Part shown: piece by piece, positions 3,538-50,933 of the stretch | How the letters are laid out: each line of letters begins with the position of its first letter | How positions within the stretch are numbered: position 1 is the first letter of the stretch | Source of the DNA: an uncultured Ruminococcus sp. | GTDB lineage: Bacteria; Bacillota; Clostridia; Oscillospirales; CAG-272 | DNA: 55,587 bases | Direction of reading: 5' to 3' | NCBI GenBank assembly: GCA_902779285.1 | Contig: CACZAZ010000002.1 | Span: forward strand, 1 to 55,587 | Notes under the pieces: generated by a model | What the model saw: only the letters and a program-made list of their open reading frames with translations | What the model was told of the DNA's origin: nothing | Databases searched by the model: none | Translations under genes and position numbers: made by a program

Positions 3538-4560
3538 ATGACGTTGATGACTTTTACCGTTCCGTGCTATAATTCCGAAGCGTATATGCGAAAATGTATC
3601 GATTCCCTGCTCCCCGCGGGGGACGATACCGAGATCATTATCGTTGACGACGGCTCGACCGACGCGACCGGCGAGATCGCAGACCGCTACGCCGAAGACC
3701 ACCCCGACCGCGTCCGCGTCATTCATCAGGAGAACGGAGGACACGGAGAGGGGGTCAATCAGGGCGTCCGGAACGCACGGGGCAAATACTTCAAGGTGGT
3801 CGATTCCGACGACTGGCTCGACGGGGACGCGCTTGCCGGACTGCTTTCCCGTATCCGGGAGCACGAGGCTGCCGGGGTCGACGTCGATATGTACGTCGCC
3901 AACTACGTCTACGAGCACGTCGCGGACGGAAAGACCTTCGTGATGGATTATCACCGGATATTCCCGAACGAAACCGTCTGTTCGTGGGAGGATATCCGTC
4001 CCTTCGGCATCACGCAGTACCTGATGATGCACTCTGTCTATTTCAAGACGGATATCCTCCGGAACTGCGGGCTGGAACTGCCGAAGCACACCTTCTACGT
4101 GGACAACCTGTTCATGTATAAGCCGCTCCCCGACGTCAAGACCATTTACTATATGCCGCTCGACCTCTACCGCTATTTTATCGGACGCGCCGATCAGTCG
4201 GTCACGCTCGAAAACGGGGCGAAGCGCTACGAACAGCAGATCCGCGTGACCAAGATGATGGTCGACTGCTTCGATCTGCGCGAGATGGGCGAGACCCGAC
4301 CGAAACTGCGGCGGTACCTGCTCCACGAACTCGGGATGATGGTCCTGATCTGCGCGGTCTTCACCTACGCCGACGACACCCCCGAGCGCCGCGCCAACTT
4401 CTTCGCGGTCTGGCAGTATATCAAGGACAAGGATCCCTGGCTCTACCGGCGGCTCCGCTGGACCACCACCGCGACGGTCGCGACGGGAAAATCCAAGTTC
4501 AGCCGCTGGCTCGACGTCTGCGGCTACCGGTTCTTCAAAAAGATCGTCAAATTCGGATAA
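3538..4560 (+). CDS. Glycosyltransferase family 2
   Basis: TFTVPCYN, IIIVDDGSTD, ENGGHG, KVVDSDD (DxD) motifs; GGAGG RBS before ATG 3538. Confidence 0.9.
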   Translation: MTLMTFTVPCYNSEAYMRKCIDSLLPAGDDTEIIIVDDGSTDATGEIADRYAEDHPDRVRVIHQENGGHGEGVNQGVRNARGKYFKVVDSDDWLDGDALAGLLSRIREHEAAGVDVDMYVANYVYEHVADGKTFVMDYHRIFPNETVCSWEDIRPFGITQYLMMHSVYFKTDILRNCGLELPKHTFYVDNLFMYKPLPDVKTIYYMPLDLYRYFIGRADQSVTLENGAKRYEQQIRVTKMMVDCFDLREMGETRPKLRRYLLHELGMMVLICAVFTYADDTPERRANFFAVWQYIKDKDPWLYRRLRWTTTATVATGKSKFSRWLDVCGYRFFKKIVKFG

Positions 4561-6428: not shown

Positions 6429-6457
6429 TTGACAAATCTTTCCGACTCTGCTATACT
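6429..6457 (+). promoter_or_regulatory. Near-consensus sigma-A promoter upstream of the rpoA-paralog unit
   Basis: TTGACA (6429-6434), 17 bp, TATACT (6452-6457), with TG extended -10. Confidence 0.75.
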
Positions 6458-6568
6458 GATAGCCCTTTCGCTCCCGGGAGCGATTTTTGCCATTCCTTAT
6501 CAAAAAAAGTAAAAATCGGTTTTCGCGAGTATATTATGAAAAAAGAAACTCGGCAGCCTCCCCGACGC

Positions 6569-6612
6569 GTCGCTTTTCCGGCGACCGGATCGGTTCCGTT
6601 TTATCGTACAAT
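6569..6612 (+). promoter_or_regulatory. Dyad GTCGC-N7-GCGAC plus -10 (copy 1)
   Basis: GTCGCTTTTCCGGCGAC (6569-6585), 21 bp, TACAAT (6607-6612); same architecture at 7855 and 8681. Confidence 0.75.
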
Positions 6613-6648
6613 GAGAACGAAAACGAGGAATACAAGGAGAAGAGCGAA

Positions 6649-6846
6649 GTGAGTGAGAAACTGTTTAAGATCACGCTGATCGCAGGATCGGCAATGATGG
6701 GTTGTCTGGTACTTATGCTGATCGTTCCGTGTTACGTAACGATCGCCCTTTATTCCGTCAGTACGTTAACTACCGTCGTAACCGGTTTGCTGTCGAACTT
6801 TACGAACAAGGACGGCTCTCACGGCGGCAACAAGTTTATGCAATGA
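6649..6846 (+). CDS. Small 65-aa hydrophobic (1-2 TM) protein upstream of rpoA paralog
   Basis: AAGGAG RBS, GTG start, MSEKLFKITLIAGSAMMGCLVLMLIVPCYVTIALYSVSTLTTVVTGLLSNF...; lower GC than flanks. Confidence 0.55.
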   Translation: MSEKLFKITLIAGSAMMGCLVLMLIVPCYVTIALYSVSTLTTVVTGLLSNFTNKDGSHGGNKFMQ

Positions 6847-6887
6847 AAACCGTCAATAACGATCAATAACCAAAAGGAGAAAAAACC

Positions 6888-7838
6888 GTGTTCGAATTCT
6901 GCAAACCCGACGTCACCGTAAAAGTCAGCGAGAATCAAAGGAGCGCGACCGCATTTATCCAGCCGTTGGATCGCGGCTACGGGATCACCGTGGGCAACTC
7001 GATCCGCCGCGTGCTGCTCTCGGGGATGCCCGGCGCCGCCGCCGTGTGGATCAAGATCGACGGCGTGCAGCACGAGTTCACGACGCTCGACGGCGTCTGC
7101 GAGGACGTCCCGGAGATTGTTCTGAACGTCAAGGGGATCGTCGCCAAACTGCAAACCGACGAAGTAAAACTCGCAGAGATCGACGAGACCGGTCCCCGCA
7201 CCGTGAAAGCAGGGGATATCAAATCCGACGGCGACCTTGAGATCGTCAACCCCGGGCAGGTGATCGCGACGCTCGCGGACGGCGTGCGTTTCCAGATGGA
7301 GATCGCGTTTGCAAAGGGGCAGGGCTACGTTCCCGCCGAGAGAAACAAAGAACTCTATTCCCCGCTGCCGCTCGGCTCGATTTCGGTCGATTCGATCTTT
7401 ACTCCCGTCCAAAAGGTCGAATACTCGGTCGAGAATACCCGCGTCGGCGGCGACGTCGATTACGACAAACTGATCCTCTCCGTCACGACCAACGGCGCCC
7501 TCTCCCCCGACGCCGCGATCGCCACCGCGTCGAACGTCCTGATCCGGCATTTCGAGTGCCTGTCCTCGATCGCCGGAGGGGAAACGCCGAAAATGACCGG
7601 CGAAGACGAAAAGGACAAGCCGCTCTCCCCCGCCCTCTCCGCCGACGTCGAGCAGCTCGCCCTCTCCCGCCGGAGCTACAACTGCCTGAAACGCTCCGAG
7701 ATCGATACCGTCGGCGACCTCGTCTCCCGCACCGAAGAGGAGATCCTGAGGATCCGGAACCTCGGGCAAAAGTCCTTTGAGGAGATCCGCGACAAGATCG
7801 CGGAACTGGGTCTGACGTTCAAAAAAGAGGAAGAGTAA
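6888..7838 (+). CDS. rpoA: DNA-directed RNA polymerase alpha subunit, diverged orphan copy (probable paralog)
   Basis: PLDRGYGITVGNSIRRVLLS, IDGVQHEF, EDVPEIVLNVK, DSIFTPV, VENTRVG..DYDKL; CTD LSRRSYNCLKR and IRNLGQKS; AAGGAG RBS, GTG start; no rpsK/rpsD/rplQ neighbours. Confidence 0.95.
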   Translation: MFEFCKPDVTVKVSENQRSATAFIQPLDRGYGITVGNSIRRVLLSGMPGAAAVWIKIDGVQHEFTTLDGVCEDVPEIVLNVKGIVAKLQTDEVKLAEIDETGPRTVKAGDIKSDGDLEIVNPGQVIATLADGVRFQMEIAFAKGQGYVPAERNKELYSPLPLGSISVDSIFTPVQKVEYSVENTRVGGDVDYDKLILSVTTNGALSPDAAIATASNVLIRHFECLSSIAGGETPKMTGEDEKDKPLSPALSADVEQLALSRRSYNCLKRSEIDTVGDLVSRTEEEILRIRNLGQKSFEEIRDKIAELGLTFKKEEE

Positions 7839-7854
7839 AACTGCGGTTTTCCGC

Positions 7855-7898
7855 GTCGCTTTTCAGGCGACCAAGGCAGACGGTCTTTGAGGTAAAAT
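7855..7898 (+). promoter_or_regulatory. Dyad GTCGC-N7-GCGAC plus -10 (copy 2)
   Basis: GTCGCTTTTCAGGCGAC (7855-7871), 21 bp, TAAAAT (7893-7898). Confidence 0.75.
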
Positions 7899-7986
7899 AA
7901 CGGCAGAAAAAGAGTTTGTCTTGAAAAGCGCCTCTTTCTACGCAAAGTCGTTCCGAAATATGATAAGGGGAAAAGGAGAATTGACC

Positions 7987-8637
7987 ATGCACGATCGGAC
8001 CTATGAAAGCAATTATCCCGCCCTTTTCGCCGAAGTGATGCGGGAACGCCCGACCGACGAGCAAAACGGCGATGGAAAACCGACGCCTCCGCCGATAGGG
8101 CATGCGTCCCCCGAAGCGCTCGCCGGTCTGCGCTCGTTTATTGAAGAACACACGCAAAGAGTATCCGACGTATCCTTTGACGAGCCCGTATGCGCCGATG
8201 ATTTGGATTGGGGCCCTGTCTGCGGTGAGAGGCGGCAGATTTGTATGTCCCCGCCTCCCCGACGCGACAAGAGGTTTTCGCTCCCGCCCCTGAAGCCGAG
8301 TTTTCAAAAACAGTTCCTGTTGAAGATGATCGAGCGGGATATGACGGCGGTCGATTGCTACACCCGGGCAAACATAGACCGCAAACTTTTCTCCAAGATC
8401 TTTTCGAGCGAAACGTACAAGCCGCGCAAGGAAACCGCGATCGCCCTGATCATGACGCTCTCGCCCTCGGAAAGTGAAGCGGACGAACTTTTGAAATCGC
8501 TCGGCTACTGTCTTTCCGAAAGCAATCTTTTCGATCTGGTGATCCGATACTGCGTAAAAAACAAGATCCACGATCTCTTTGCCGTCAATGAATATCTCTA
8601 CGAGATGGATCTTCCGCTTCTCGGTTCCTGCGAATGA
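7987..8637 (+). CDS. Protein with C-terminal XRE/HTH-like domain of the type found on Firmicutes macro-domain proteins; no macro domain here
   Basis: DCYTRANIDRKLFSKI...YKPRKETAIAL...ADELLKSLGYCLSESNLFDLVIRY...NEYLYEMDLPLLG; AAAGGAG RBS before ATG 7987; N-terminal half is Pro/charged-rich. Confidence 0.7.
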   Translation: MHDRTYESNYPALFAEVMRERPTDEQNGDGKPTPPPIGHASPEALAGLRSFIEEHTQRVSDVSFDEPVCADDLDWGPVCGERRQICMSPPPRRDKRFSLPPLKPSFQKQFLLKMIERDMTAVDCYTRANIDRKLFSKIFSSETYKPRKETAIALIMTLSPSESEADELLKSLGYCLSESNLFDLVIRYCVKNKIHDLFAVNEYLYEMDLPLLGSCE

Positions 8638-8646
8638 TCCTTTTTC

Positions 8647-8680
8647 AAAAGACTCCGTGCGGTTCGCACGGAGTTTTTTT
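8647..8680 (+). terminator. Intrinsic terminator
   Basis: ACTCCGTGCG-GTT-CGCACGGAGT followed by a T run. Confidence 0.8.
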
Positions 8681-8724
8681 GTCGCTTTGGAGGCGACCTG
8701 TTGCAGCTCGTTTTGTCGTAAAAT
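8681..8724 (+). promoter_or_regulatory. Dyad GTCGC-N7-GCGAC plus -10 (copy 3)
   Basis: GTCGCTTTGGAGGCGAC (8681-8697), 21 bp, TAAAAT (8719-8724). Confidence 0.75.
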
Positions 8725-8779
8725 AAGGACGTCGGAAGAAAAACCGTCTGAAACAACATAACGAAAGAAGGAGCAATCA

Positions 8780-9409
8780 ATGGAAAAACGGATCACGGAA
8801 CTGGTATTCATTCTGGACAGGAGCGGGTCGATGGAGCATATCCGGCGGGCGACCGTCGCGAACTTCAACGAACTGCTCGACGCGCAGAAAGCCGAAGTAC
8901 ACGGCGACGAGGCGCGGATCTCGGTCTACTCGTTCAATCAGGCGCTCGACAAGGTTTGTTTCCGTTCGCCGCTCGACGAGGCGCGTCCGCTGACCGAGAG
9001 GAACTACGTCCCGAACGGCATGACCGCCCTGAACGACGCGGCGTGCGCCGTTTTGAACGAGATCTCCGGAGCGCAGAAAGAGGAGATCGACGGGGGCAGA
9101 AAGATCGTCACGGTCGTCTGCATCATCACCGACGGGCTCGAGAACGCGAGCCGGTTTTACAGACGCGCCGACTTAAAGCGTCTGATCGCGGCGAAAAAAG
9201 AGGAGGGGTGGAACTTCCTTTTCGCCGGGGCGAACTTCGACGTTGACGAGGAGGGCGAAGAACTCGGATTCGACAAGCGGGAACGGATCTCGTTTGAGGC
9301 GAGCGAGCGCGGCGTACACGATCTTGCGGAGCATGTTTCCTTTTGCTGCGCTTCCCTGCGCGAAGACCCCGAAGACGCGCCCGTCTCCCGTCCTCCCCGC
9401 CGCAAATAA
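8780..9409 (+). CDS. von Willebrand factor A (vWA) domain protein
   Basis: Complete MIDAS: LVFILDRSGSM (DxSxS), GMTALND (T), IITDGLENAS (D); GWNFLFAGAN. Confidence 0.9.
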   Translation: MEKRITELVFILDRSGSMEHIRRATVANFNELLDAQKAEVHGDEARISVYSFNQALDKVCFRSPLDEARPLTERNYVPNGMTALNDAACAVLNEISGAQKEEIDGGRKIVTVVCIITDGLENASRFYRRADLKRLIAAKKEEGWNFLFAGANFDVDEEGEELGFDKRERISFEASERGVHDLAEHVSFCCASLREDPEDAPVSRPPRRK

Positions 9410-9427
9410 AAACGGAAGGACGCCGAA

Positions 9428-9505
9428 ATGCTGTTCGAACTGATGATCGTTTTGATAATCGCCGGCATTCTTTCCGTGTACGATCACTACAAAAAGGGCG
9501 AATGA
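9428..9505 (+). CDS. Putative 25-aa single-TM peptide MLFELMIVLIIAGILSVYDHYKKGE
   Basis: GGAAGGA RBS-like element, ATG, hydrophobic core with charged tail; lies between the vWA stop and the terminator. Confidence 0.45.
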   Translation: MLFELMIVLIIAGILSVYDHYKKGE

Positions 9506-9517
9506 TCCCCCTAACAA

Positions 9518-9543
9518 AAGCGGCTGCCCGAGGGCAGCCGCTT
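9518..9543. terminator. Probable bidirectional terminator
   Basis: AAGCGGCTGCCC-GA-GGGCAGCCGCTT perfect hairpin between convergent genes. Confidence 0.65.
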
Positions 9544-9547
9544 GCGT

Positions 9548-9730
9548 TTACGGTTTTTCGTCCTGCTCCGTTTGTTCCGCCGTCTTTTTGCGGCGGCGGA
9601 CGCATTCGGTGAGAAGGTACTCGATCTGACCGTTCAGCGAGCGGAAGTCGTCCGCCGCCCACTGCGAAAGATCGGCGTAGAGTTTTGCCGAGAGACGGAG
9701 CGGGATCTGCTTCTTGCCCTCCGGCTCCAT
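9548..9730 (-). CDS. Arc-like ribbon-helix-helix DNA-binding protein
   Basis: [39 protein letters not shown]; start overlaps the SPFH stop (TGATG). Confidence 0.8.
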
Positions 9731-10752
9731 CAGTAGAGACTCCCGGAGTTGACGACGGGCTGGGCGTCGTGGTTGCCGCAGAGAACGACGAGCAGATTGG
9801 AGACCATCGTCGCCTTGCGTTCCTCGTCAAGCTGAACGGTCCCCTTTTCCGCGAGCCGATCGAGCGCCATTTCGACCATCCCGACCGCGCCGTCGACGAT
9901 CATCTTGCGGGCGTCGATGATAGCGGACGCCTGCTGTCTCTGGAGCATCACGGCGGCGATCTCGGGCGCGTAGGCGAGGTAGGTGATCCGCGCCTCGACG
10001 ATCTCAAGACCCGCCTCGTTCACCTTCGACTGGATCTCGTCGCGGATGCGGAGCGCGACCAGTTCGCTCGAGCCGCGCAGACTGCCCTCGTCCGCGATCC
10101 CGTCGCCCGTCGTGTCGACGTTGGGAGCGACGTCGTAGGGATAGAGCCGGACGATATTCCGGAGCGCGGCGTCGCATTGGAGCGAGAGGTATTCCTTGTA
10201 GTTATCGACGTTGAAGACCGCCTTCGCGGTGTCGACCACGCGCCAGGTCACGGCGATCCCGATCTCGACCGGGTTGCCGAGGCAGTCGTTGATCTTCTGC
10301 CGGTTGTTGCTGAGCGTCATGATCTTGAGCGAAATGCGGGTGTTCGCGACCGCCGCGGCGTTCTTCTGATTCGAGGTCTGCCGCTCCGCGGGGACGGAGG
10401 AGGTCGAAACGTCGCCGCTCTGATTCAGTTTGGTCTTGGCGGCGGGGTTGACCGACGTGCAGAACGGATTGACCCAGTAGAAGCCGTCGCCCTTCAGCGT
10501 GCCGTAGTATTTACCGAACAGCGTGAGCACCAGCGCCTCCTGCGGTTTCAGCACCTTGAAGCCGAGGATCAGGATCCAGCCGAGGCAGAGATACGCGACG
10601 CAGGTACCGAAAAGCCCCGGATAGGCGGGCGTATCCTCCGTCCCGAGCGAGGCGCAGACCAGCAGTCCGACGAACGCCGCGACGTAGAGCGCGAGCATCA
10701 GGATCAGCATCAAAAAGCCGATCTTTTTCCCTGTGATGACCTTTTCTTCCAT
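9730..10752 (-). CDS. SPFH/band-7 domain membrane protein
   Basis: Two N-terminal TM segments; [59 protein letters not shown]. Confidence 0.9.
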
Positions 10753-50300: not shown

Positions 50301-50933
50301 CGCCTTGATCGCGTCCCAGTCGACCATCTCGGCAAGATCCTTGTAATCCCACGCCTCGATCTTCTGGATCTCGTGCGAGGTACGGAAACCGTCGAAGAAG
50401 TTGATGAACGGAACTCTGCCCTTGATGGTCGCGAGGTGCGCGACGGCGCCGAGGTCCATGATCTCCTGCTGGTTGGATTCCGCGAGCATCGCAAAACCGG
50501 TCTGACGGCAGGCGTAGACGTCGGAATGATCGCCGAAGATGTTCAGCGCGTGCGAGGCGACGCAGCGAGCCGAAACGTGGATGACGCAGGGGAGCAGTTC
50601 GCCCGCGATCTTATACATGTTGGGGATCATCAGAAGAAGCCCCTGGGACGCGGTGTAGGTGGTGGTCAGAGCGCCCGCGGCAAGCGAGCCGTGCACGGCG
50701 CCCGCGGCGCCCGCCTCCGACTGCATCTCCATAACCTTGACTTTCTCTCCGAAGATGTTTCTTGCGGGGCCGCCGAAAATGTTCTTATCGGTCGCGCTCC
50801 AGGTGTCGGTCACTTCTGCCATGGGGCTGGAAGGAGTGATCGGGTAGATGGCAGCGACCTCGGTGAACGCGTACGAAACGTGCGCCGCCGCGGTGTTGCC
50901 GTCCATGGAAATCTTTTTTCTTTCGATCGCCAT
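47325..50933 (-). CDS. nifJ: Pyruvate:ferredoxin (flavodoxin) oxidoreductase
   Basis: AAIYPITPSSPM, EMQSEAGAAG, GLGGDGTV, CIGCNNCSFVCPH, CMGCTLCVKACP, FSGSCAGC, GGDGWAYDIG, YSNTGGQ. Confidence 0.97.
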   Translation of the reverse strand: MAIERKKISMDGNTAAAHVSYAFTEVAAIYPITPSSPMAEVTDTWSATDKNIFGGPARNIFGEKVKVMEMQSEAGAAGAVHGSLAAGALTTTYTASQGLLLMIPNMYKIAGELLPCVIHVSARCVASHALNIFGDHSDVYACRQTGFAMLAESNQQEIMDLGAVAHLATIKGRVPFINFFDGFRTSHEIQKIEAWDYKDLAEMVDWDAIKAFRERSINPEHPVLRGSAENGDIFFQHREACNSYYDALPAIVEEYMGKVNAKLGTDYKLFNYYGAPDADRVIIAMGSVCDVAEEVIDYMLAAGEKVGLIKVRLYRPFVAAKLAEAIPQSAKKIAVLDRTKEAGALGEPLYLDVVAALAQTGVKAKVVGGRYGLGSKDTTPASIFAVYENLKKREPKHNFTIGIKDDVTGLSLPEKVAPDTAPAGTIACKFWGLGGDGTVGANKNSIKIIGDHTDKFIQAYFQYDSKKTGGITISHLRFGDKPIKAPYYITKANFVACHNVAYILKGYKIVQDVKPGGTFLLDCQWTEADLDKHLPNSVKSYIANNGVKFYIINATAIAAKEVGNPKVKNTVLQSAFFALAKILPTADAINYMKYMATKSYSKFGEDVVAQNHKAIEQGAGALVEVKIPEAWKNAGKDKAEKPVKSDRPELAEFVNKIVTPVGKMDGDSLPVSAFVPYVDGTLPQGAAAFEKRGVAVYVPEWNPEKCIGCNNCSFVCPHATIRPFAMTAAEAKAAPKVTKFSPKPVAKTEYKFTVAVSPLDCMGCTLCVKACPVNQGADKKAAAAGVKASAADYAIRMVPQESQLDQQAAFNYAVANVSEKPELIAPTVKGSQFKQPLLEFSGSCAGCAETSYARLITQLFGERMYISNATGCSSIWGGSAPATPYTVNRETGKGPAWANSLFEDNAEHGLGLALGQKTIREKLKGYVEELAANAKKDDVKAACAEYLDTFEDGAKNTEATKKLVAAIEGCDCELGKKILLEKDYLSKKSVWIFGGDGWAYDIGFGGLDHVLASGEDVNVMVFDTEVYSNTGGQASKASNIGQVAQFAAAGKAIGKKNLAEIAMSYGYVYVAQVAMGADMNQLLKALTEAEAYHGPSLIIGYAPCEMHGIKKGGMQNCQQEMKRAVEAGYWNMFRYNPTLEHNKLSVDSKDPTGDYQAFISNEARYARLAQSFPERAKDLFAKAEANAKARYERLKKFGDFYS

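Follow-up and report, generated by a model that had tools for sequence, protein, structure and literature searches.

We analysed a 55,587-nucleotide stretch of DNA from an uncultured Ruminococcus sp. (contig CACZAZ010000002.1; hereafter the window) and concentrated on a plus-strand cassette in which a second gene for RNA polymerase's alpha subunit lies beside a regulator gene and a vWA gene. The cassette begins with a small membrane protein of 65 amino acids (aa) (6649..6846, GTG start), probably co-transcribed with rpoA2 (6888..7838), which encodes a full-length alpha paralogue of 316 aa. These are followed by the regulator gene (216 aa, 7987..8637), whose C-terminal ~115 aa form the HTH domain of the Macro-HTH family, and by a gene for a cytoplasmic vWA protein (209 aa, 8780..9409) with an intact metal ion-dependent adhesion site (MIDAS; DRSGSM ... 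T ... D, of the form DxSxS...T...D). A 25-aa hydrophobic peptide is encoded 3' of the vWA gene (9428..9505). Pfam searches and an open reading frame check gave the same three units that an earlier reading of the letters alone (the sequence-only reading) had listed: a small transmembrane (TM) protein with rpoA, an HTH-like gene, and vWA with a 25-aa peptide.

Each unit is preceded by an intergenic copy of the dyad GTCGC-N7-GCGAC, a 17-bp palindrome (6569-6585, 7855-7871 and 8681-8697). The window holds four matches to this pattern against 0.43 expected, and none of 100 dinucleotide-preserving shuffles reached four; the fourth match, at 50428, lies within coding sequence and shares no other features with the intergenic three. 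In all three intergenic copies the dyad is followed by a C and then by a -10 hexamer exactly 21 nt past the dyad (the C and 20 nt). The resulting promoters are P1 (6569..6612; -10 TACAAT at 6607-6612, predicted start ~6619), upstream of the small membrane protein gene and rpoA2; P2 (7855..7898; TAAAAT at 7893-7898, predicted start ~7905), upstream of the regulator gene; and P3 (8681..8724; TAAAAT at 8719-8724, predicted start ~8731), upstream of the vWA gene. The first two copies share the stretch CGCGTCGCTTTTC[C/A]GGCGACC, with 20 of 21 positions identical. Copy number, spacing and this near-identity thus all reproduce what the sequence-only reading had noticed. Sequence inspection found no TTGACA-like hexamer 16-18 bp 5' of any of the three -10 boxes, and a consensus promoter scan called nothing at the three dyad sites, yet it called a strong promoter at 6429-6457.

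The genome assembly (2.0 Mb, 137 contigs, 59% G+C, completeness 95%) contains 12 perfect dyads, and the full arrangement of dyad, C, N20 and TAnnnT occurs only at the three sites in the window. A relaxed scan allowing 1-3 mismatches added none, its nearest matches all being coding sequence without a -10. The sequence-only reading had proposed such a genome-wide scan for GTCGC-N7-GCGAC-N21-TANNNT: the fixed spacing was confirmed, and the wider regulon that it envisaged was absent. Since no further site exists in a 95%-complete genome, the predicted regulon appears to be strictly local. The same three-site arrangement is present in contigs from independent bovine-gut DNA runs, indicating that it is no assembly artefact, and the listed strain differences among four DNA runs all fall outside the dyad arms and -10 boxes.

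The dyad is not peculiar to this strain. Among all loci fetched from Clostridia, we collected 89 non-redundant dyads 5' of a vWA-type gene of the same family as that in the window. A TAnnnT hexamer follows at exactly 21 nt in 85 of them and at 20 nt in three; in one it is absent. Alignment of the 85 sites gives A-W-W-T-GTCGC-Y-T-N3-A-R-GCGAC-C, 20 variable bases and T-A-t-a-a-T. The arms GTCGC and GCGAC do not vary in any of the 85 sites, and the flanking T and C and the inner Y-T/A-R are conserved as well, whereas the information content of the spacer does not exceed 0.45 bit at any position, and a conserved -35 and a TG extension are both absent. Six and seven bases after the -10 there is a pyrimidine (84/85) and then a purine (80/85). 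Pyrimidine at -1 and purine at +1 is the classical start-site preference, and because the pair fits it, a start can be placed. Counted from this predicted start, the palindrome centre falls at -42 in the 85 aligned sites and at all three window sites, so that the dyad lies near the class II position of -41.5 and overlaps the -35 region of a core promoter that lacks both a -35 and an extended -10. The earlier view of one co-regulated promoter set, with the dyad centred near -42 and no -35, is supported.

Relatives of the regulator's C-terminal 115 residues occur in 7 of 40 related genomes, as the C-terminus of Macro-domain proteins, and directly behind the genes for these proteins come the same dyad, its -10 at a distance of 21 nt, and a vWA gene. 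When one genome per species was scanned with a profile of the domain, at least 600 loci came up, spread over Oscillospiraceae, Lachnospiraceae, Acutalibacteraceae, Ruminococcus and others. Comparison of these loci identifies the dyad/-10 unit as the predicted, conserved vWA promoter of a widespread clostridial Macro-HTH/vWA module. We propose that this is a one-component module, in which a sensor, usually a Macro domain, is fused to a C-terminal HTH domain and its gene precedes the dyad promoter, behind which comes a small vWA gene. The window has the same parts: its regulator ends in the conserved HTH domain with the Y-x-x-A-N-[IVL]-D-R-K motif, and the dyad-N21-TAnnnT unit of P3 and a small vWA gene with MIDAS lie directly 3' of the regulator gene. 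It shares with the module the HTH family (E ~1e-27 against the relatives; E 8.8e-59 against a family profile that includes the window's own sequence), the operator, the 21-nt spacing and the vWA target family. Unlike the module, it has no Macro domain: domain searches found none in the 216-aa regulator or in its 327-360-aa relatives, which have instead a Cys-rich and Tudor-like N-terminus that is deleted in the window. It also has three promoters instead of one, the extra two driving the regulator and the rpoA paralogue. P3 is close to the family consensus in the aligned-site comparison and is best read as the module's ancestral promoter for vWA; those of rpoA2 and the regulator are, by the same comparison, predicted lineage-specific copies of it, and P2, which drives the regulator gene, predicts autoregulation.

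A different use of the same parts is seen in another genome, G084, where locus L165 (G084:C4:94000-106000) encodes a 161-aa family member consisting of the HTH domain only (579-1064). Two dyad-N21 promoters lie 8 kb apart in this locus, at 1441 and 9609, 5' of genes for Sel1/TPR-like repeat and MORN-repeat proteins, and no vWA gene is found beside either of them. The regulator/dyad pair is, as far as gene order tells, portable and reused for other cargo in G084.

We then asked which protein would bind the dyad. We surveyed 201 genomes of the order by motif search and HTH-domain search and counted the 2x2 table by hand. Both the HTH-domain gene and the motif are present in 46 genomes, the gene alone in 8, the motif alone in 14 and neither in 133 (odds ratio ~55); the motif is thus found in 46 of 54 genomes with the HTH gene and in 14 of 147 without it. 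A reversed control pattern gave ~24 hits, enough for most of the motif-only cases, and in several others the motif is so near the start of a contig that the gene upstream is missing. As a rule, 2-50 nt separate the stop of the HTH gene from the motif. In the genome studied here, a single gene of the family accompanies the three sites. Because of this strong phylogenetic co-occurrence, and because its own gene carries a site, the HTH protein encoded at 7987 is the likely binder of the dyad. The sequence-only reading had left the choice between this adjacent protein and a trans-encoded activator; the data favour the former, and the latter finds no further site in the genome on which to act.

The regulator itself is a shortened member of its family. 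Its closest homologues have 327-360 aa and are 95%, 89% and 70% identical to it across all 216 residues; their N-terminus carries a Cys-rich motif and then a segment with a sub-threshold match to the PcrA/UvrD Tudor domain. When the window is aligned with L152/L149 and L033, contigs carrying the longer form, P2 is seen to be retained together with the 5' leader, the ribosome-binding site and seven codons. These codons, MHDRTYE (compare MHKWTYDE), open the gene that comes first after P2 in L033, and they are joined in frame to regulator codon ~117. The alignment identifies the window regulator as an in-frame deletion derivative that has lost the sensor part and kept the DNA-binding half intact. 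Since the short arrangement is also found in contigs from two more bovine-gut DNA runs, it is a natural allele. The DNA-binding half has a ratio of nonsynonymous to synonymous substitution rates (dN/dS) of 0.39 against L033. A truncated regulator of 103 aa in L149-L151 was traced to a gene-calling difference, the DNA being identical to that of the full-length L152.

In an AlphaFold (AF2) model, residues 101-216 of the regulator are all-helical with confidence scores (pLDDT) above 90. The top Foldseek matches in the PDB are C.Esp1396I, 434 Cro/repressor, DdrO and P22 c2, with target-normalised template-modelling (TM) scores of 0.66-0.78, and PDB profile matches to C-proteins are weak (E 0.25-0.6). 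The model suggests that the HTH domain likely adopts a lambda-cI/XRE-like fold. Searches of the HTH protein against Pfam, NCBIfam and PADLOC gave no match to WYL, CRP or other known regulator families, and the WYL/DriD- or CRP/FNR-type factor that the sequence-only reading had considered was not found.

The cassette occupies a chromosomal slot between a GH2 glycosidase gene and an RHH/SPFH pair. In related contigs from bovine and other gut metagenomes this slot holds varied cassettes, each of which includes rpoA2 and vWA. Where the HTH domain is encoded (the window, L033/L034 and L149-L152), three dyads lie in the same places, each with N21 and TAnnnT; the 3-kb contigs L035/L036, which cover the HTH-vWA end only, have P3, the single site that they span. 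P1 and P2 are thus retained in L033/L034 and L149-L152 together with rpoA2, in agreement with the conservation that the sequence-only reading had asked for. In L033/L034 their -10 boxes have drifted (TACAAT to TATGAT and TAAAAT to TATAAT) and their loops and spacers have changed, with arms and spacing kept. Cassettes with other regulators, namely 87/93-aa winged-helix and/or HTH_73 proteins (L030/L031, L147 and L148), have no dyad at all. L030 has a repeated motif of its own, GGGCGGWCAGTTYTG-N15-TATMCT, at 4229-4270 and 8783-8825, before the first gene and before vWA, near its 87-aa winged-helix and HTH_73 proteins. Regulator and operator therefore appear to be swapped as a pair between cassettes.

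These observations lead us to propose the following mechanism. The dyads would be operators within three promoters of the sigma-A type, each without a -35. The HTH domain, as a dimer, would bind the palindrome and, seated at -42, stand in for the absent -35 contact and recruit RNA polymerase, in the manner of lambda cI at PRM and of ComR/Rgg/PlcR-type regulators. In the bovine-gut lineage the sensor would be the Cys-rich and Tudor-like domain. The vWA promoter P3 would have been copied twice, giving P2 in front of the regulator operon, with positive autoregulation, and P1 in front of the small membrane protein gene and rpoA2, and the outcome would be a private three-promoter regulon. In the window strain, an in-frame deletion has taken the sensor part of the regulator and spared its DNA-binding half. 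We put the probability that the HTH protein is a class-II-type activator of such a private regulon at about 0.6.

Judged from promoter anatomy alone, activation rather than repression is the somewhat better-fitting direction of control, possibly with repression at high occupancy. It is favoured because a -35 and a TG extension are absent across the 85 sites, because the distance from dyad to -10 is fixed to the base across large evolutionary distances, and because -42 is the position used by lambda cI at PRM, where the site is centred at -42, and by CRP/FNR at class II promoters, where it is at -41.5. It is also favoured because Firmicutes regulators of the XRE fold, namely ComR, Rgg and PlcR, act from palindromes in place of a -35.

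Transcription of the unit is seen in assembled metatranscriptome contigs of 95-99% identity. They cover 6735-6950, from the small gene into rpoA2, and 7051-7802; a second group, ranging overall over 8822-9515, covers 8822-9225 in the vWA gene and 9313-9515 into the peptide open reading frame. No assembled metatranscriptome contig covers the regulator gene. We conclude that rpoA2 and vWA are transcribed in gut metatranscriptomes, DNA carry-over being possible.

Several features of the window weigh against the activator model. P1 and P2 are off consensus, since the flanking T is absent, with CGC there instead, and inner position 11 of P1 is C where the family has A or G; both sites may therefore bind weakly. 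The N-terminally deleted regulator could be inactive or altered. Pfam does not recognise an HTH in it, and none of the fold matches is significant (all E >1). The RNA data consist of assembled contigs at low depth, possibly with DNA carry-over, in which 5' ends cannot be read. Finally, rpoA2 could owe part of its expression to the promoter at 6429..6457, a strong, near-consensus sigma-70-type promoter on the plus strand (TTGACA-17-TATACT, with TG before the -10) that looks constitutive, lies ~110 nt 5' of P1 and is kept across the slot's cassette variants (window, L030 and L033). Directly after its predicted start lies a terminator- or attenuator-like hairpin, TCGCTCCCGGGAGCGA followed by T5 (6468..6488, plus strand), which folds weakly (-9.4 kcal/mol, z -1.2). 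The product of this promoter would be either a very short RNA or a read-through transcript into P1 and rpoA2, the latter by passing the weak hairpin.

The most serious competing explanation keeps the same HTH protein and palindromes and reverses the sign: the protein would block the -35 region, sensing of a signal by its N-terminal domain (Macro, or Cys-rich and Tudor-like) would release it, and the promoters would fire without an activator. Many XRE-family proteins are repressors, and the nearest fold matches include the repressors 434, P22 c2 and DdrO. An operator that overlaps the -35 region, which polymerase occupies, is also a classic place for a repressor, and for systems linked to ADP-ribose the sensor-HTH one-component factors have been described as regulators that act negatively (PMC9503650 section 3.8); both points count against activation. 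However, with no -35 and no conserved TG in the 85 sites, the bare promoter should be weak, and a dyad/-10 distance that does not differ by a single base in 95% of sites fits contact with polymerase and is not needed for occlusion. Repression of its own operon by a sensor-less variant that is fixed in natural populations would moreover silence the regulon, whereas RNA of rpoA2 and vWA is seen. We therefore regard repression as unlikely.

It is improbable that the three copies are left over from local duplication, P1 and P2 being functionless and rpoA2 served by the constitutive promoter at 6429-6457. The near-identity of copies 1 and 2 (20/21), their off-consensus flanks and the strong promoter 110 nt 5' of P1, with only a weak hairpin between, would fit such a history. 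Yet L033/L034, whose rpoA2 is 89% identical, keep the arms, spacing and -10 of P1 and P2 despite drift in loops, spacers and -10 letters, both sites are also retained in L149-L152, and the listed strain differences avoid the arms and -10 boxes.

A trans-encoded factor, WYL/DriD-like, CRP/FNR-like or other, that binds the sites as part of a larger stress regulon, with the HTH protein a mere target, is very improbable. The truncation of the local HTH protein and the consensus deviations of P1 and P2 would suit it, but a 95%-complete genome holds no further site, domain searches of the cassette and its variants turned up no protein with a WYL domain, the cassette proteins have no cNMP-binding domain either, and the motif follows the HTH-domain gene across the 201 genomes and the cassette variants. 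We also found nothing that connects the unit to DNA damage, which the sequence-only reading had suggested as the inducing stress.

Terminator structures at the locus bear on a last alternative at the RNA level. A strong intrinsic terminator (8647..8680, plus strand; -21.8 kcal/mol, z -4.7) abuts the third dyad, so that vWA needs its own promoter; it has a 9-bp GC-rich core stem followed by T7, and the minimum free energy fold contains 15 pairs because an upstream A run pairs with the T run. A second terminator hairpin (9518..9543, plus strand; -26.5 kcal/mol, z -4.3) ends the vWA unit. Among ~80 Macro-HTH/vWA loci, the segment between dyad and -10 is in most cases a complement of the vWA ribosome-binding site, the two covarying locus by locus (examples are L005, L006, L007, L083, L087 and L114); own-locus duplexes average -14.4 kcal/mol against -9.5 for cross-locus pairs (p = 1e-10). 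Since this anti-Shine-Dalgarno segment precedes the predicted start, it would be present only in read-through transcripts, and it is probably an insulator by which read-through RNA stays untranslated and dyad-promoter RNA is translated. That the dyad is instead an RNA hairpin in a cis-regulatory leader, with TAnnnT as loop or spacer and anti-Shine-Dalgarno control of translation, is suggested by this complementarity and by the lack of a terminator between regulator gene and dyad in most Macro-HTH loci, but is highly improbable: the arms do not covary and are unvaried in 85 of 85 sites, which points to conservation of sequence and not structure, dyad hairpins are no stabler than shuffles (z -1.0 and -1.7), the unvaried T1, A2 and T6 with Y/R 7 nt later are a sigma-A promoter signature, the strong terminator directly precedes dyad 3 in the window, and no Rfam family matches. 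An Rfam search at E up to 1 returned two sub-threshold chance matches, neither at a dyad.

We next considered rpoA2 itself. All three alpha-subunit domains of rpoA2 match (PF01193, PF01000 and PF03118), and its TIGR02027 score is 338 bits against a cut-off of 227.8. The housekeeping rpoA, 51% identical to rpoA2, is found on contig C9 in the order secY-adk-map-rpsM-rpsK-rpsD-rpoA-rplQ; because it holds the canonical place in the ribosomal operon, the window gene is the paralogue. Database homologues of rpoA2 form a tight clade of ten clusters with 77-98% identity, the next sequences being at ~55%. In a maximum-likelihood tree this clade has support of 100/100, its stem measures 0.75 changes per site, and it falls outside the canonical rpoA of genus and order and groups (99/93) with other long-branched, non-canonical alphas. 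The idea of a spare alpha subunit in the sequence-only reading is thus borne out to the extent that rpoA2 is a genuine paralogue with its own clade. In a sample of 40-41 genomes of the genus and order, two full rpoA genes occur only in this genome. A congeneric genome carries a contig-end fragment, L029 (G010:C70:40739-41080), 62% identical to rpoA2 residues 11-124, with no dyad in the 5 kb upstream; by sequence, a second rpoA2-bearing species is likely. A phage origin was considered and rejected: the best matches in phage collections reach at most 47% identity, no closer than cellular rpoA, and come from unannotated fecal contigs. The HTH domain is found in two records only of the phage collection.

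With a dN/dS of 0.20-0.22, similar to that of the flanking GH2 gene, rpoA2 is under purifying selection. It keeps the equivalents of the assembly residue R45 and of the DNA-binding residues R265, N268, C269, G296, K298 and S299. The rpoA2 clade has lost both acidic residues equivalent to E. coli D259/E261 (EELDLS to EQLxLS), a patch that in E. coli contacts sigma region 4, and has Q or R at the equivalent of V264. Altered partner contacts of rpoA2 are therefore plausible. The orthologue of the 65-aa TM protein in L033 is 83% identical (dN/dS 0.17), and in L033 and L154 the vWA gene is likewise followed by a small TM protein.

The slot holds further genes in its other variants. In L030, a 658-aa Schlafen-group-3-like helicase lies between rpoA2 and vWA (6725-8701); a match to PDC-S41, a candidate defence family of PADLOC, spans its full length (E 9e-278). 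Sub-threshold PcrA/UvrD Tudor and CarD/TRCF RID segments are seen at L030 5891-6715, at L147 3042-3887 and in residues 95-132 of protein P0122; Tudor and RID domains of known proteins bind the beta subunit of polymerase. L033 6491-7066 and L147 3042-3887 have in common a repeated W-T-Y-[DEN]-E..C..[LY]L motif. The conserved right border of the variable slot is the pair of minus-strand genes at 9548-10752, which overlap by one base and encode an RHH protein (60 aa) and an SPFH/Band-7 membrane protein (340 aa); the latter has a weak PADLOC match to PDC-M05B (E 9e-5).

Related rpoA paralogues occur beside Macro-HTH/vWA or ADP-ribosylglycohydrolase genes at other loci, which hints at a link to ADP-ribosylation. 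In L153 (2906-5936), a Macro-HTH gene, dyad-N21-TAAAAT and vWA are followed by an rpoA paralogue with its own TTGATT-17-TACAAT promoter. L154 (1-5219) starts with a one-mismatch dyad, N21 and TATAAT, and continues on one strand with vWA, a 70-aa TM protein, a 79-aa acidic protein, an ADP-ribosylglycohydrolase, a PHP phosphoesterase, an AsnC-type HTH protein, a 139-aa protein consisting of the alpha C-terminal domain only, and an rpoA paralogue. At L032 5367-5774 (minus strand), a 135-aa protein that looks YbjN-type and chaperone-like by eye is encoded head-to-head with the non-canonical rpoA P0012; YbjN-type chaperones are among the partners of ADP-ribosylglycohydrolase systems (PMC9503650).

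In phage T4, the enzymes Alt and ModA attach ADP-ribose to R265 of alpha (PMC8120803, PMC9503650). One may therefore imagine that the HTH/vWA module and the divergent rpoA paralogues form a system guarding RNA polymerase, in which an attack on polymerase, such as phage-driven ADP-ribosylation of the alpha C-terminal domain, would cause the regulator to call up a replacement or decoy alpha together with vWA. This idea draws on the recurrence of the paralogues beside Macro-HTH/vWA (L153), in the dyad-headed row of L154, and beside Tudor-like proteins and the PDC-S41 helicase. It is weakened by several facts: the window cassette has no ADP-ribose-processing domain, the rpoA paralogues retain R265, a second full-length alpha is found in only ~2 of 50 module-bearing genomes, and the paper on ADP-ribosylation counter-systems does not mention alpha genes (PMC9503650). 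We hold it tentatively, as an unlikely reading, and a general coupling of Macro-HTH module and rpoA paralogue was rejected, the link being facultative at ~2 of 50 genomes. Of the phage attack suggested by the sequence-only reading there is thus indirect indication only, from the candidate defence helicase of a sibling cassette and from the ADP-ribose-processing genes beside related rpoA paralogues.

Among known systems, the module resembles the ADP-ribosylglycohydrolase (ARG)-centric systems predicted to act against viral ADP-ribosylation (Iyer, Burroughs, Anantharaman, Aravind 2022, PMC9503650 section 3.8). A sensor-HTH regulator, a vWA 'chaperone', ADP-ribose-processing enzymes and variable effectors are common to both (compare L153 and L154), whereas the regulator family and operator are different and the window cassette has no ADP-ribose-processing domain. 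With lambda cI, C.Esp1396I and ComR/Rgg/PlcR the predicted regulator would share a dimeric five-helix HTH on a -35-overlapping palindrome at a fixed distance from the -10, and the lambda-cI/XRE-fold activators also show autoregulation from the same site, as proposed here. Unlike in these activators, the domain is missed by Pfam HTH models, is C-terminal with two extra helices and is coupled to other sensors, and activation is predicted. CRP/FNR class II promoters are alike in geometry alone (palindrome at ~-42, -35 absent); a cNMP-binding/winged-helix protein is absent here, and the half-sites (GTCGC against TGTGA) and lengths (17 against 22 bp) differ.

Bacteria outside Francisella are commonly credited with a single alpha subunit. 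We found no description of the module, its operator or clostridial rpoA paralogues in the literature searched, and Francisella was the only documented two-alpha case that we found. There, as here, two non-identical full-length rpoA genes exist, the second outside the ribosomal operon; in Francisella, however, alpha1 and alpha2 are both constitutive subunits of the core enzyme, where they pair as a heterodimer, and every species of the genus has this arrangement (PMC3294249), whereas rpoA2 here is sporadic, sits in a variable cassette behind a predicted regulated promoter, and enters polymerase only putatively. The regulatory logic is of a known kind; what is new is the regulon with a predicted inducible second alpha and the recurrence of such paralogues beside ADP-ribose modules.

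For the family, the analysis defines base for base the predicted operator and promoter of regulators present in a quarter of the order's genomes and in many other Clostridia, and the match of operator and regulator yields a testable protein-DNA pair. Because genes for Macro, ADP-ribosylglycohydrolase and vWA proteins are repeatedly the neighbours of related rpoA paralogues, it also becomes a testable question whether spare or decoy subunits are a bacterial answer to modification of RNA polymerase by phages. If a divergent alpha under purifying selection does stand behind a signal-dependent promoter, the composition of the core enzyme would be changeable on demand.

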